Source: a virus (lineage: Duplodnaviria; Heunggongvirae; Uroviricota; Caudoviricetes). From it: a stretch of DNA of 6,182 bases. Below, one piece after another: positions 1 through 6,182 of this stretch. The stretch lies in the IMG/VR virus record IMGVR_UViG_2744054976_000007, positions 1-6,182 of that record; one strand, 5' to 3'. Within the stretch, counting starts at the first letter, position 1. Each line of letters starts with the position of its first letter. The notes under the pieces were generated by a model, which was not told where the DNA came from, made no database searches, and saw only the letters and a program-made list of their open reading frames with translations. The position numbers and the translations under genes were made by a program.

Positions 1-560
1 AGCGCAGCTTCCTCGGCAACAGCGGCAGGAAATTCCGCGAAGGCGGCAAAAACGTCCGAGACGAACGCTAAGTCTTCTGAAACAGCAGCGGGACAGAGCG
101 CCTCAGCTGCGGCAGGTTCAAAAACAGCGGCTGCGTCGTCTGCCAGTGCTGCGTCAACAAGTGCCGGGCAGGCCTCAGCCAGTGCCACCGCTGCCGGAAA
201 ATCGGCAGAAAGCGCCGCATCATCCGCTTCAACAGCCACAACGAAGGCTGGCAGCCACTGAGCAAGCCACTGCAGCAGCGAGGTCTGCTTCTGCAGCAAA
301 AACCTCTGAAACAAATGCAAAGACTTCAGCAGACAATGCTGCTTCCTCTAAGGCGGCAGCCGCATCGTCCGCTGGTTCAGCGGCGTCATCGGCATCATCT
401 GCGTCTGCTTCAAAAGATGAGGCGACCAGACAAGCGTCAGCAGCGAAAGGTAGTGCCACGACAGCAACAACGAAAGCATCAGAGGCGGCAGGCAGTGCGA
501 CGGCTGCATCTCAGAGCAAAGTTGCTGCTGAATCCGCGGCAACGCGTGCCGAAACAGCGG
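1..560 (+). repeat. Quasi-repetitive Ala/Ser/Thr-rich coding repeats (KTSETNAK-type) of the tail-fibre shaft
   Basis: Reiterated gcngcn/tcngcn codons give repeated AAKTSETNAK and SASAA motifs in the translation. This low-complexity region also explains the spurious overlapping ORFs on both strands (68..265, 229..459, 348..563, 315..701). Confidence 0.5.
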
Positions 561-2062
561 CAAAACGGGCAGAGGATATTGCTGATGCCGTATCTCTGGA
601 AGATGCGAGTACGACGAAAAAAGGTGTGGTTCAGCTCAGTAGCGCCACTAACAGCCCGTCTGAAACGCTGGCTGCGACACCAAAAGCGGTTAAGGCGGTA
701 ATGGATGAAACGAACAAGAAAGCGCCCTTAAATAGTCCTGCACTGACCGGAACGCCAACAACGCCAACTGCGCCAAAAGGTACTAATAATACTCAGATCG
801 CAAGTACGGCTTATGTGATGGCCGCGATTGCCGCCCTTGTAGACTCGTCGCCTGACGCACTGAATACGCTGAACGAGTTAGCGGCGGCGCTGGGCAACGA
901 CCCGAATTTTGCGACCACCATGACTAACGCGCTTGCGGGTAAGCAACCGAAAGATGCCACCCTGACGGCGCTGGCCGGTCTTGCTACTGCGGCAGACAGG
1001 TTTCCGTATTTTACGGGGAATGATGTCGCCAGCCTGGCAACCCTGACAAAAGTCGGGCGGGATATTCTTGCGAAATCGACCGTTGCTGCCGTTATCGAAT
1101 ACCTCGGTTTACAGGAAACGGTAAATCAGGCTTCTGGCGCATTACAGAAAAACCAGAACGGCGCAGATATTCCGGGAAAAGATACCTTCACCAAAAACAT
1201 TGGTGCCTGCCGCGCATATAGCGCATGGCTGAATATTGGTGGCGATAGTCAGGTCTGGACAACTGCGCAATTTATTTCGTGGCTGGAGAGTCAGGGGGCA
1301 TTTAACCATCCTTACTGGATGTGCAAAGGCTCATGGGCTTATGCAAATAATAAGGTTATTACAGATACAGGTTGCGGAAATATTTGTCTTGCAGGTGCTG
1401 TGGTGGAAGTTATTGGCACTCGCGGCGCAATGACCATACGCGTTACTACGCCGAGCACGTCCAGCGGTGGCGGAATTACTAACGCTCAATTCACTTATAT
1501 TAATCATGGTGATGCTTACGCTCCTGGCTGGCGACGAGACTACAACACGAAAAACCAGCAGCCTGCATTTGCTTTAGGGCAAACAGGACGCAGGGTCGCA
1601 AATGATAAAGCTGTTGGCTGGAACTGGAATAGCGGTGTTTATGATGCAGATATCAGTGGTGCATCGACATTAATCCTCCACTTCAATATGAATGCGGGGA
1701 GTTGCCCTGCTGTACAGTTCCGCGTGAATTACAGGAACGGCGGTATTTTTTATCGTTCAGCGCGTGATGGTTATGGCTTTGAAGCTAACTGGTCAGAGTT
1801 TTACACCACAACACGCAAACCCTCTGCGGGGGATGTTGGTGCATATACGCAGGCAGAATGTAACTCAAGGTTTATTACAGGTATTCGCCTTGGCGGTCTG
1901 TCATCTGTTCAGACATGGAAAGGCCCCGGCTGGTCTGACAGGTCAGGTTATGTCGTTACGGGTTCAGTTAACGGAAACCGTGATGAATTAATTGATACAA
2001 CTCAGGCAAGGCCAATTCAGTATTGCATTAATGGGACGTGGTATAACGCGGGGAGTATTTAA
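1..2062 (+). CDS. Side tail-fibre protein (constant region plus variable C-terminus Sv); 5'-partial at the window edge and interrupted by an apparent 1-nt frameshift near 250-261
   Basis: Frame +1 from nt 1 reads SAASSATAAGNSAKAAKTSETNAKSSETAAGQSASAAAG...STATTKAGSH and stops at 259-261. Frame +2 (the 146..2062 ORF in the track) continues with the same motif type (EQATAAARSASAAKTSETNAKTSADNAASS...) and is open to the stop at 2060-2062. The frame +2 translation upstream of ~250 is Pro/Gln/Arg-rich and unlike a fibre, so the true gene changes frame there. Downstream are a conserved fibre domain (KKGVVQLSSATNSPSETLAATPKAVKAV...AAVIEYLGLQETVN) and a variable C-terminus ending PIQYCINGTWYNAGSI. Family assignment is from recalled lambda Stf / Mu S / P1 S / e14 Stf proteins. 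Confidence 0.85.
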   Translation, partial: AQLPRQQRQEIPRRRQKRPRRTLSLLKQQRDRAPQLRQVQKQRLRRLPVLRQQVPGRPQPVPPLPENRQKAPHHPLQQPQRRLAATEQATAAARSASAAKTSETNAKTSADNAASSKAAAASSAGSAASSASSASASKDEATRQASAAKGSATTATTKASEAAGSATAASQSKVAAESAATRAETAAKRAEDIADAVSLEDASTTKKGVVQLSSATNSPSETLAATPKAVKAVMDETNKKAPLNSPALTGTPTTPTAPKGTNNTQIASTAYVMAAIAALVDSSPDALNTLNELAAALGNDPNFATTMTNALAGKQPKDATLTALAGLATAADRFPYFTGNDVASLATLTKVGRDILAKSTVAAVIEYLGLQETVNQASGALQKNQNGADIPGKDTFTKNIGACRAYSAWLNIGGDSQVWTTAQFISWLESQGAFNHPYWMCKGSWAYANNKVITDTGCGNICLAGAVVEVIGTRGAMTIRVTTPSTSSGGGITNAQFTYINHGDAYAPGWRRDYNTKNQQPAFALGQTGRRVANDKAVGWNWNSGVYDADISGASTLILHFNMNAGSCPAVQFRVNYRNGGIFYRSARDGYGFEANWSEFYTTTRKPSAGDVGAYTQAECNSRFITGIRLGGLSSVQTWKGPGWSDRSGYVVTGSVNGNRDELIDTTQARPIQYCINGTWYNAGSI
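1092..1117. other. Left crossover site of the Din-type invertible segment (gix/pix-like 26-bp site) inside stf
   Basis: TTATCGAATACCTCGGTTTACAGGAA at 1092-1117 matches the recalled gix/hix/pix-type site. The reverse complement of 4145-4170 is TTATCTAAAACCTCGGTTTACAGGAA, a 24/26 match. Extended inverted repeat 1092-1131 versus 4131-4170 is 35/40 identical with a perfect 25-bp core (1101-1125 / 4137-4161). The site encodes VIEYLGLQE at the constant/variable boundary; the predicted exchange point is the central dinucleotide 1104-1105. Confidence 0.75.
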
Positions 2063-2602: not shown

Positions 2603-2629
2603 AGGCCCGCTATCGGGCCTTAATTTTTA
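2603..2629. terminator. Putative bidirectional rho-independent terminator between the convergent tfa genes
   Basis: AGGCCCG-CTAT-CGGGCCT (2603-2620) forms a 7-bp GC-rich stem with a 4-nt loop, followed by TAATTTTTA on the + strand and a pyrimidine-rich stretch on the - strand. It lies in the 28-bp gap between the two tfa stop codons. Confidence 0.5.
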
Positions 2630-3154
2630 CTCTGGTTTTTGTGGCCATTCAGGATTTGCCGTATCCACACGGCTGGCCAGAACACTGTAGCGTTCCCATG
2701 CTTCCAGTCGTGTGCGTTCCTCGTCTGTTGCCATATTCAGCCTGACAGCGCGTTCCAGCGGTTGGATGACTGATTCAGCTTCGGAAAGCAATGCGGCCTT
2801 TTGTGATTCGGCCTGTTGTTGTTGCTCGTCTGCCGTATAAATCCGTTTAACCACAGCTCCGTCCCTAAACATCCACTTACCGGAATCATCAGCGCAGCGG
2901 TTGGCTGTAATATCTGGAACCTCAACGACGCTATAACCTTCAGGGTTAAGCGTGGAGGCATCTTTGGTGATGGCGACAATAATATTATTTGCATCGTAAA
3001 CAATCTTTATTGTGTCTGGCTGAAAGTTTTTCACTTCCTCATACCAGTTTTTTCCGTCTTCGGACCATAACCAGATAACATCAAAATTCTTTGTTAGCTG
3101 ATATTGTTCTTTTGTTTTTGGATTTCCAGACTTAATATTTTTTAAATGCTGCAT
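2627..3154 (-). CDS. tfaE: Tail-fibre assembly protein (Tfa') paired with the alternative fibre tip Sv'
   Basis: 175-aa [57 protein letters not shown]...; matches my recollection of E. coli e14 TfaE. Position and orientation (immediately downstream of Sv' on the - strand) fit the Mu U' / e14 tfaE arrangement. Symbol is from memory, not a search. Confidence 0.9.
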
Positions 3155-3157
3155 AAA

Positions 3158-4120
3158 TTACACCTGTACGACGTTATACCATGTGCCATTGATGTATTTT
3201 TGTATTGGTCTGAATACTGCCGGATCATCGCCATCAACTGCACCGATAATGCCAAGCCCCGTAATTGCATGACCTGATTTCTCATACATCACGCCTTTTT
3301 GCATAGTCTGAACAACACGTGTACCAAGTCGGACATCTCTCACATAACGTGAGTCAAAATTACCATAATTGCCGGGAATAACTTGCGCACCGCAAAGCCA
3401 GTTGCCATTGTTGTCCATGTACGCCTGACCATCGGTGCCATTGGCTGTCCTTGAGTTATTAATCATGTAGATGCCAAATTGCTTATTCCCCAGTCCACCA
3501 ATCATAAATTTGCGATCAGCGTGGTCCTGACGAAGTAATGCCTGCGCACCATCGGTGGATACCGCATTGCGTCCCAAAATAACATTCTGGTCACGCATAT
3601 GAATCCACATGCCGGTACTACTGTTAATTGCAAAACGGTTTGCAAATATATCCCCTGTAACATCAAGACCATGCCCCATGCTTATCCGACCAGTTCTGAG
3701 ATTAAGCGTAAAGGGGCGTAGTGGCCCTATATCACCATTTTCTCCCTCATTCTCTCGTGTAGGGATGATATGCAGGCATTCTTCAGAACGACGAAAAATA
3801 GCACCAAAAGATGAATTAAATATCCTCAGTGCATTGACTGTCGATATTTTTACTTCACTGCTGAAAAGGGCTTTAACAAGGACAGACAAAGCATCCCATT
3901 TAAGAGTCATCAGGTCTTTTGTTGTGGTGCTCTGGCGGCTTCTCCATTTGAAATATTCATTGCCGTTGTCGCCTGTTTCAAACCACATGTATGAATCAGT
4001 GTCGCTGTCGGCATTATTTTTAAAACCAATCTTTGCCCAGTCAGTATTTCTAATCCAGGCAAGGATTGAGTCGTTTTCAAAAGTAAGCCCACCGGACAAG
4101 GTATCGCCATTCTTTTGCAC
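3158..4120 (-). CDS. Alternative tail-fibre C-terminal segment (Sv'), start-less and expressed only after inversion fuses it to the stf constant region
   Basis: Open frame on the - strand from the in-frame stop at 4163-4165 down to the stop at 3158-3160; the track starts it at a GTG (4118-4120). After the crossover site it reads LGLQETVNRARNAVQKNGDTLSGGLTFEND..., sharing LGLQETVN with the + strand fibre, and ends PIQKYINGTWYNVVQV (compare PIQYCINGTWYNAGSI). No SD or start of its own; the real coding extent probably begins at the crossover (~4157). Confidence 0.8.
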   Translation of the reverse strand: MQKNGDTLSGGLTFENDSILAWIRNTDWAKIGFKNNADSDTDSYMWFETGDNGNEYFKWRSRQSTTTKDLMTLKWDALSVLVKALFSSEVKISTVNALRIFNSSFGAIFRRSEECLHIIPTRENEGENGDIGPLRPFTLNLRTGRISMGHGLDVTGDIFANRFAINSSTGMWIHMRDQNVILGRNAVSTDGAQALLRQDHADRKFMIGGLGNKQFGIYMINNSRTANGTDGQAYMDNNGNWLCGAQVIPGNYGNFDSRYVRDVRLGTRVVQTMQKGVMYEKSGHAITGLGIIGAVDGDDPAVFRPIQKYINGTWYNVVQV

Positions 4121-4144
4121 GGCGTTCCTGGCCCTGTTTACCGT

Positions 4145-4170
4145 TTCCTGTAAACCGAGGTTTTAGATAA
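4145..4170. other. Right crossover site of the invertible segment (gix/pix-like), inverted relative to 1092-1117
   Basis: TTCCTGTAAACCGAGGTTTTAGATAA; see left site. The two mismatches lie in the outer half-site, and an in-frame TAA sits in that outer half on the - strand reading. Confidence 0.75.
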
Positions 4171-4224
4171 TGGCGGTTTCTGGCCTGCATGGCATGATTT
4201 GTGCTTTTGGACGGGAGATTCAGC

Positions 4225-4515
4225 GTGCTGATTGGCTATGTAAGGGTATCAACAAATGACCAGAATACAGACCTGCAACGAAACGCTCTTGTTTGTGCAG
4301 GATGTGAACAAATATTTGAAGATAAATTAAGCGGAATAAGGACAGGCCGACCTGGATTAAAACGTGCTTTAAAGCGCCTTCAAAAAGGTGACGCACTGGT
4401 TGTCTGGAAACTGGACTGACTGGGTCACTGTATGCGGCATCTTGTCGTGCTGGTGGTGGAAGCCTGGAAGAAGTATCGGGTGTTGCTGAACCGTGTTGAT
4501 ACGTCAACTGCACAG
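4225..4515 (+). pseudogene. pin: Din-family DNA invertase (Pin/Gin/Hin-like serine recombinase) remnant: premature stop after codon 65, 3' part decayed and deleted
   Basis: From GTG 4225: LIGYVRVSTNDQNTDLQRNALVCAGCEQIFEDKLSGIRTGRPGLKRALKRLQKGDALVVWKLD then TGA (4417-4419). Recalled Gin/Pin proteins continue WKLDRLGRSM...; here the Arg codon position is TGA. The next ~30 codons still read [15 protein letters not shown]...NRVDTSTAQ (compare LGRSMKHLISLVGEL...TDSIDTSSP) before homology stops near 4515. The track's 4201 start is an upstream in-frame GTG. Confidence 0.8.
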
Positions 4516-4639
4516 GATATTGAATGGCCAGCACTGCCGTAGGGTAAAACATATAAATTCTATAATTAGATGTATCTTTCCATTTACGGCAAGGAAGGGG
4601 GCTTGGAAGACGTAAAGCATCTCACACTGAGATTATTTT

Positions 4640-5230
4640 TTATATGTCAGGTGTCTGAAGTTTTGCTTTGGCTCTTAAAATGGTTTGCCGCGAGGTTTTG
4701 AATTCCCGGGCAATGGCACTTATACTTACACCTGACTTAATTCGTTCGAATACCACCTGTTTCTGTTCTTCATTTAACACAGGTAGTCGACCAAAACGTT
4801 TCCCTGCGCCGCGGGCTCTTACTATCCCGGAATGAGTGCGTTCAAGTAAAAGGTCTCGTTCAAATTCAGCGACTGCTGAAATTACTTGCATCATCATTTT
4901 TCCTGTTGGACTGGTCAGGTCAATGCCAGCCAATGCTAAGCAATGCACTCTGATACCTGTTTCGGTCAGTTGTTCCACTGTTTTCCTGATATCCATTGCA
5001 TTACAACCAAGGCGATCCAGTTTTGTCACAATCAATTGATCACCACATTTCAGGCGAGCAAGCAACCGGTTAAAACCAGGACGCTCACTGGTTGCTGCTG
5101 AGCCGCTAATGTGTTCTTCGATTATTTGCTGAGGTTTGATTTTAAAACCTGCACTTTCGATTTCCCGGCGTTGATTTTCGGTGGTCTGATCCAGCGTTGA
5201 TATCCGACAGTAAGCAAAAATTCGAGACAT
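4640..5230 (-). CDS. Small serine recombinase (resolvase/invertase family), intact, not the cognate Din invertase
   Basis: 196-aa [25 protein letters not shown]... with the catalytic-serine motif (RISTLDQ), the KLDRLG motif and a C-terminal resolvase-type HTH ([23 protein letters not shown]). Only distantly similar to the pin remnant. Weak SD (GAG about 9 nt upstream). Confidence 0.9.
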
Positions 5231-5780: not shown

Positions 5781-6182
5781 GAAGATATTCCTTAAAATAT
5801 TATTGATTTTCATTGCGATATTGTATGTCTGATTCAGGATATGTTGACTTATACATCGGTTTTGTCTGGGTTATTGGATATGCCAATCCCTAATTTTATT
5901 AGGGCATAACTAAAAATGCTGAATATGATAAGGAGAGATGTGATTATCAGTATGCTGTTCATATAGCCTCGAATTAGTAATGTGTTATATATGATATAGT
6001 TGACAATTTTTATCTTGGGTGTTCTTAAAGTTCGTAGATAAACATTGTCGTTTCAGGTATACAGGAATGCTAACAGGTGGCAGCAAAAATCAGGCGGTTT
6101 ATGGCGCAAGCTGAAGCGGCAACTGCAAACTATCTTATGCAGAGACTCTACACAGATTGGGTTTAAAAGTATACATAGATAA

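Follow-up and report, generated by a model that had tools for sequence, protein, structure and literature searches.

A private two-nucleotide deletion splits the tail-fibre gene stf in the record of a lambdoid prophage placed at the Rac site

Phage lambda PaPa carries a frameshift in stf relative to Ur-lambda, a difference credited to Hendrix & Duda (1992) in PMC12617516, where lambda particles with the frameshifted stf are described as devoid of side fibres and still able to infect through gpJ. Invertible segments of the Din family, i.e., those of Mu (G/Gin), P1 (C/Cin) and e14 (P/Pin), join a constant 5' part of the fibre gene to one of two alternative C-terminal cassettes. With regard to the reading of DNA sequences, the motif pair d(GCGAAGC)/d(GCGAAAGC) is known for band compression in electrophoretic sequencing (Hirao and co-workers; PMC13037366). 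According to the latter source, a review from 2026, mini-hairpins of the GCGAAGC type remain folded in 7 M urea and make Sanger bands overlap by two bases, an effect that is not cured by 7-deaza-dGTP but is cured by dITP or by running the gel at 70 °C; similar trouble is mentioned for capillary instruments on the basis of the review authors' unpublished data (PMC13037366).

As judged from its relatives, in which the gene order is ydaY, tape measure, L, K, I, J, lom, stf, tfa ... pinR, ydfK, ynaM, uspF, ompN, the window analyzed here (the whole stretch of 6,182 nt of the Caudoviricetes record IMGVR_UViG_2744054976_000007) represents the distal portion of a lambdoid prophage residing at the Rac site. 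It contains stf-tfa, an invertible tfa'/stf' cassette, a truncated pin and pinR-ydfK-ynaM in this order, with lom preceding stf in the relatives, and comprises the following features:

1-261, plus strand: 3' part of the truncated stf N-terminal frame (frame 1), ending with ...TKAGSH; the open reading frame starts upstream of the window
246-256, plus strand: deletion site, GGCTGGC/AGCC lacking GA; all relatives read GGCTGGCGAAGCC
253-2062, plus strand: remainder of stf (frame 2), constant region to about position 1105, then the joined variable C-terminal cassette
1088-1125, plus strand: left crossover site, arm of a 38-nt inverted repeat (92% complementary), containing TTATCGAATACCTCGGTTTACAGGAA
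2065-2598, plus strand: tfa, tail-fibre assembly protein (Caudo_TAP), paired with the joined cassette
2627-3154, minus strand: alternative tfa' (Caudo_TAP) of the inverted cassette
3158-4120, minus strand: alternative, currently unjoined Stf C-terminal cassette (Gp34_trimer-like)
4137-4174, minus strand: right crossover site, second arm of the 38-nt inverted repeat
4201-4419, plus strand: truncated serine invertase of 72 aa, covering resolvase profile positions 2-73 of 145 only
4640-5230, minus strand: pinR, full-length serine invertase (Resolvase + HTH_7) of the resident Rac remnant

The inverted crossover sites, which we take to resemble gix, flank alternative C-terminal cassettes with cognate tfa genes. 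Between the 38-nt arms lies an invertible segment of about 3.1 kb, and the locus as a whole offers two C-terminal cassettes and two Caudo_TAP genes. Both orientations of the segment are present among public genomes (loci L006-L015), where they give rise to an Stf of either 945 aa or 959 aa. In all copies seen, the invertase belonging to the element is truncated, and inversion presumably depends on a Pin protein acting in trans, a role that could fall to pinR, located about 220 nt downstream of the remnant. In the original prediction, the dead invertase had been taken as a sign of a decaying prophage. This argument did not hold up, as the same truncated invertase is found in relatives with intact stf and an intact pinR is located nearby. 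The stretch from 4201 to 4640 consists of the 72-aa invertase remnant and a short tfa fragment, followed by the full pinR on the opposite strand, and looks like a recombination scar left where an incoming lambdoid tail module was joined to the resident Rac remnant. Other strains have the same pair of remnants at attB-lambda, on the bioA side, where similarity to the window stops at position 4533.

Frame 1 of positions 1-261 translates to SAASSATAAGNSAKAAKTSETNAK...STATTKAGSH*, an uninterrupted Ala/Ser-rich protein of the Stf type that ends with ...SASTATTKAGSH just before the TGA at 259-261. Frame 2 is open between position 2 and its stop codon at 2060-2062; from about position 250 onward it reads ...ATEQATAAARSASAAKTSETNAKTSA..., followed by the tail-fibre C-terminal part of 600 residues. 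A switch from frame 1, up to the TGA at 259-261, to frame 2 from about 250 is exactly what had been predicted, and it is more than a chance arrangement since the DNA on both sides of the junction between positions 252 and 253 is identical to the intact 945-aa stf of close relatives, from which it differs within positions 181-330 by a 2-nt gap alone. In an alignment of positions 181-330 with strain 63-2, this gap constitutes the single difference, strain 63-2 reading GGCTGGCGAAGCCACTGAG and the window GGCTGGC--AGCCACTGAG. The missing bases are GA (GGCTGGC(GA)AGCC in the relatives) and belong to codon 343 (GAA) of stf, such that the 2-nt deletion results in a net +1 shift. A 1-nt frameshift, as originally proposed, is therefore not what the alignment to the relatives reveals. 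Removal of one base in AGCCAC (253-258) does yield a continuous frame, and the arithmetic of that proposal was correct, but the reading that it produces, TKAGSTEQ, is not the ancestral one: intact stf reads TKAGEATEQATAAAR (...TKAGEATEQ...) across the site, and the homologues, which had been expected to carry one base fewer, carry two bases more (GA). Neither did the site turn out to be the low-complexity repeat it had been taken for, because neither a homopolymer nor a slipped repeat unit is involved and the lost bases map to the loop of a TGGC-GAA-GCCA mini-hairpin. The assignment to a tail-fibre constant region split by a frameshift, on the other hand, was borne out: the gene is a lambda-type stf, and the lesion is located about 835 nt upstream of the left crossover site (1088-1125) and thus in the constant region, where it would inactivate whichever cassette is joined. 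The protein derived from 253-2062 is identical to residues 345-945 of the intact relative. The indel is not a multiple of three, is not compensated nearby and is the only one in 6182 nt. The 2-nt deletion and the frame structure are established at the level of the record, as is the uniqueness of the allele in the collections covered.

Megablast of positions 1-700 against 5,426 complete Escherichia coli genomes revealed the segment in 3,487 of them, and the best matches (99.7% identity) all extended over 702 nt versus the 700 nt of the query. Over the whole window, the nearest genomes are those of E. coli TUM9868 (NZ_CP128923) and 2017.02.04CC (NZ_AP027754), each of which differs by two substitutions and the 2-nt gap over 6182 nt. 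One substitution, at position 979 (T in the window, G in the others), is common to both comparisons, and one further site is specific to each relative. Within ynaM (5849-5962), the nearest relatives have one private substitution each, at positions 5888 and 5908, and the accessions of their YnaM proteins differ; over this part the window is 100% identical to strains Combat13F7 and PSJ-23. In 63-2, TUM9868 and 2017.02.04CC, stf is one intact open reading frame of 945 aa that reads ...STATTKAGEATEQATAAARSASAAKTSETNAK..., and the Stf of TUM9868 features the prophage tail fibre N-terminal domain PF08400 at residues 1-134 (E value 1e-71), a domain that the source stf probably shares, its position falling upstream of the window.

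When an 81-nt query across the junction was used, full-length matches were obtained in 2,184 complete E. coli genomes with a best identity of 97.6%, which corresponds to two gap columns. Evenly sampled matches all comprised 83 nt versus 81, and the sole match with at least 99% identity was a partial one of 37 nt not spanning the junction. Hence, all 2,184 complete E. coli genomes that hold the segment possess the two extra bases, and the GA deletion is absent from each of them. The exact junction 30-mer likewise had no match in species-representative genomes, IMG/VR or JGI metagenomes, the deletion was absent from all 11 fetched loci covering the site, and a look-up based on tfa led to ten places, none of them with the GA deletion. 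On the protein level, the predicted 344-aa fragment, in two upstream variants, was without exact match among about 15 billion catalogued proteins, and exact look-up of the C-terminal open reading frames beginning at 146, 161 and 182 gave nothing. Gene conversion from a paralogous stf was considered and discarded for want of a donor, the junction sequence being absent from the complete E. coli genomes. The exchange at position 979 is private as well: it is a synonymous change from GGG to GGT (Gly) in GGCCGG(T)CTTGC, not one of 900 complete E. coli genomes with the segment has 979T, and the surrounding 30-mer has no match in species-representative genomes, IMG/VR or JGI metagenomes.

Some public gene calls on intact stf truncate it to 'hypothetical proteins' of 478 aa or 453 aa, and in both contigs examined an antisense open reading frame of about 200 aa is called instead (e.g., 2097-2711 of locus L004). 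Such split calls mimic a frameshift yet are artefacts of the gene caller; products of 478 aa (start 626) and 453 aa (start 701) are on record but were rejected as evidence for a frameshift, since the genomes they stem from have an undamaged stf. Several frames on both strands are open in the GCN-rich Ala/Ser shaft region, with minus-strand open reading frames at 68-265 and 229-459, and the lambda annotation carries a similar antisense open reading frame, orf206b (648-1268 of the fetched lambda locus L016).

Intact homologues with the same frame structure and a demonstrated function for it had been named in the original prediction as the observation that would count against an inactivating lesion. 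They were looked for, and the homologues show a single continuous frame, so that the split is a lesion or an error and not a designed feature. A functional split, with full-length Stf being recovered by programmed +1/-2 ribosomal frameshifting or with a fibre built from two pieces, consequently appears extremely improbable. Upstream of the TGA, frame 2 indeed contains no stop over about 700 nt, as deduced from the upstream sequence of the relative, and any +1 shift would thus give a long fusion. However, the two-frame arrangement exists in no homologue, the nearest relatives included, all of which possess one open reading frame, and AGC CAC TGA G is devoid of a slippery or prfB-like context, of a Shine-Dalgarno-like element and of a homopolymer that would allow transcriptional slippage; inspection of GCT GGC AGC CAC TGA GCA revealed no X XXY YYZ heptamer, CUU UGA-type site or upstream Shine-Dalgarno-like element. 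The nearest in-frame starts (GTG at 146, 161 and 182) lack a ribosome-binding site, while a product initiated at GTG 626 or ATG 701 would be a C-terminal piece that lacks the tail-attachment domain. Programmed frameshifting, and with it the two-piece fibre, was ruled out on the grounds that the split is not conserved among homologues and that neither a slippery site nor a stimulatory element is present. We infer, with a probability of about 0.5, that the strain itself carries the deletion in its DNA, as a real loss-of-function mutation of very recent origin. The window contains no further indel, not even at runs of five or six A residues, which argues against a generally error-prone assembly, and the private 979T suggests a separate natural lineage in which about one private change has accumulated per 6 kb, a level also seen in the two relatives. 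Frameshift knockouts of this gene are known to be viable, as lambda PaPa shows, and this lends further support to a real mutation. On the other side, the allele was encountered in no other record of the collections searched. The GA deletion has no flanking microhomology and lies outside any repeat; in indel spectra of E. coli, 2-nt deletions of this kind are uncommon as spontaneous events. In addition, it falls into the single GCGAAGC of the region, i.e., into a motif for which a two-base sequencing artefact is documented.

The latter circumstance is central to an alternative that has to be taken seriously even if it is held at somewhat below even odds, namely that the deletion is confined to the record. 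On this view the correct sequence would be TGGCGAAGCCA, with GGCGAAGCC in place of 250-256, forming a very stable mini-hairpin with a GAA loop, and stf would really be intact; fragments ending just past the mini-hairpin would have run too fast in Sanger or capillary sequencing so that two bases were lost, some other structure-dependent consensus error being a possible variant. In agreement with this, the deleted GA is part of the loop of TGGC-GAA-GCCA, which contains d(GCGAAGC), this heptamer occurs nowhere else on either strand of the 6,184 nt of the intact relatives, the two bases lost in the window's only indel come from the loop of precisely this element, and no collection searched contains a second copy of the allele. 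The discrepant site thus combines a GCGNAGC/GCGNNAGC motif with the loss of about two bases, a coincidence that a random deletion would reach at about 6/6183 positions or about once in a thousand. This value of about 0.1% is, however, a post hoc one, as the motif was noticed after the deletion had been seen. Moreover, few bacterial assemblies rest on electrophoretic reads, standard dye-terminator chemistry uses dITP, coverage of both strands normally resolves compressions, and thousands of assemblies from current platforms read the site correctly. The rest of the window is without error signature, and the private synonymous substitution suggests ordinary natural divergence. As a sub-case of genuine mutation, the deletion may be real and caused by local secondary structure, either by stalling of the polymerase at the mini-hairpin or by a quasi-palindrome template switch that would turn GGCTG-GCGAAGCC into the perfect inverted repeat GGCTG-G-CAGCC; we consider this unlikely. 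The deletion does yield a perfect 5-1-5 inverted repeat at 246-256, and a templated switch would account for a 2-nt deletion without microhomology. In yeast, small stable hairpins cause polymerases to pause and are hotspots of mutation (PMC3874155), which also favours such an origin. Nevertheless, 11% of all possible 2-nt deletions in the region produce junction-spanning arms of at least 5 nt, and the perfecting of a quasi-palindrome was for this reason dismissed as a significant signature; a loop of 1 nt cannot fold intramolecularly, and the lack of recurrence at the site in 2,184 genomes speaks against a strong hotspot. Nearest-neighbour folding of the DNA at the site is unremarkable (z of about -0.5), with parameters that may omit the special stability of the GAA loop, and therefore tells little. 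Whether by way of an in vivo hotspot that switches off the side fibres or by way of an artefact that creates a false pseudogene, a causal role of the GCGAAGC mini-hairpin is a tentative and rather doubtful proposition.

If the deletion is a genuine mutation, it would have hit the constant Ala/Ser-rich shaft region of stf in this strain alone. Translation from the normal stf start would shift frame after Gly342, add Ser-His and stop at the TGA at 259-261, and the predicted product would be a fragment of 344 aa, provided that the upstream part outside of the window matches that of the relatives. Such a fragment would keep the N-terminal tail-attachment domain and lose the distal shaft as well as the receptor-binding tip. 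Both alternative C-terminal cassettes would be silenced because the lesion is situated upstream of the crossover site. Particles, should the prophage still form any, would probably be devoid of side fibres and reliant on the central gpJ fibre, a phenotype proposed here by analogy with lambda PaPa. The Rac-site prophage of the strain would then make only particles without side fibres in either orientation of the switch and would provide a natural counterpart of the lambda PaPa lesion. Were the deletion an artefact, an intact host-range gene would have been annotated as a pseudogene, and the case would serve as a reminder that exactly two bases can go missing from a record at mini-hairpins of the GCGAAGC type. 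In either case the finding is ordinary, be it a frameshift pseudogene of a familiar type or a mistake in the record; neither outcome alters the understanding of tail fibres or frameshifting, and its significance is mostly practical. What is mildly instructive is the coincidence of the deletion with a mini-hairpin motif.

In comparison with the published cases of band compression, the intact site shares the motif, here within the extended stem TGGC-GAA-GCCA, and the discrepancy in the window likewise amounts to exactly two bases at the hairpin, whereas the published demonstrations relied on test fragments with GAAA loops on slab gels (PMC13037366).

The resemblance to lambda stf extends over the protein as well as its surroundings. 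A tblastn search of lambda with the intact homologue gave identities of 84% for residues 1-326 and 76-80% for residues 417-631. The order lom-stf-tfa is also that of lambda, tfa following directly after stf in the window and lom preceding stf in the relatives. In lambda PaPa, too, a frameshift divides one stf open reading frame, the pieces being orf-401 (N-terminal) and orf-314 (C-terminal). The lesions themselves are distinct: the frame switch of lambda PaPa lies at about residue 499 of the 945-aa homologue (KA/PL), equivalent to about position 720 of the window, and the 2-nt deletion at codon 343 is thus located about 470 nt upstream of it. Hendrix and Duda reportedly traced the lambda PaPa lesion to a 1-nt deletion. 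It has been verified experimentally, whereas that of the window is a reading of the recorded sequence. Furthermore, stf of the window has an invertible C-terminal region, which lambda is lacking.

In this last respect, the locus resembles the Din-family segments of Mu, P1 and e14, with which it shares the constant 5' part joined to one of two C-terminal cassettes, a separate tfa for each cassette and the flanking inverted crossover sites. It deviates from them in that its own invertase is cut to 72 aa, leaving pinR of the neighbouring Rac remnant as the only candidate enzyme. The frameshift is not part of the Din-type switch but resides upstream of it, a position from which it would disable both outputs.
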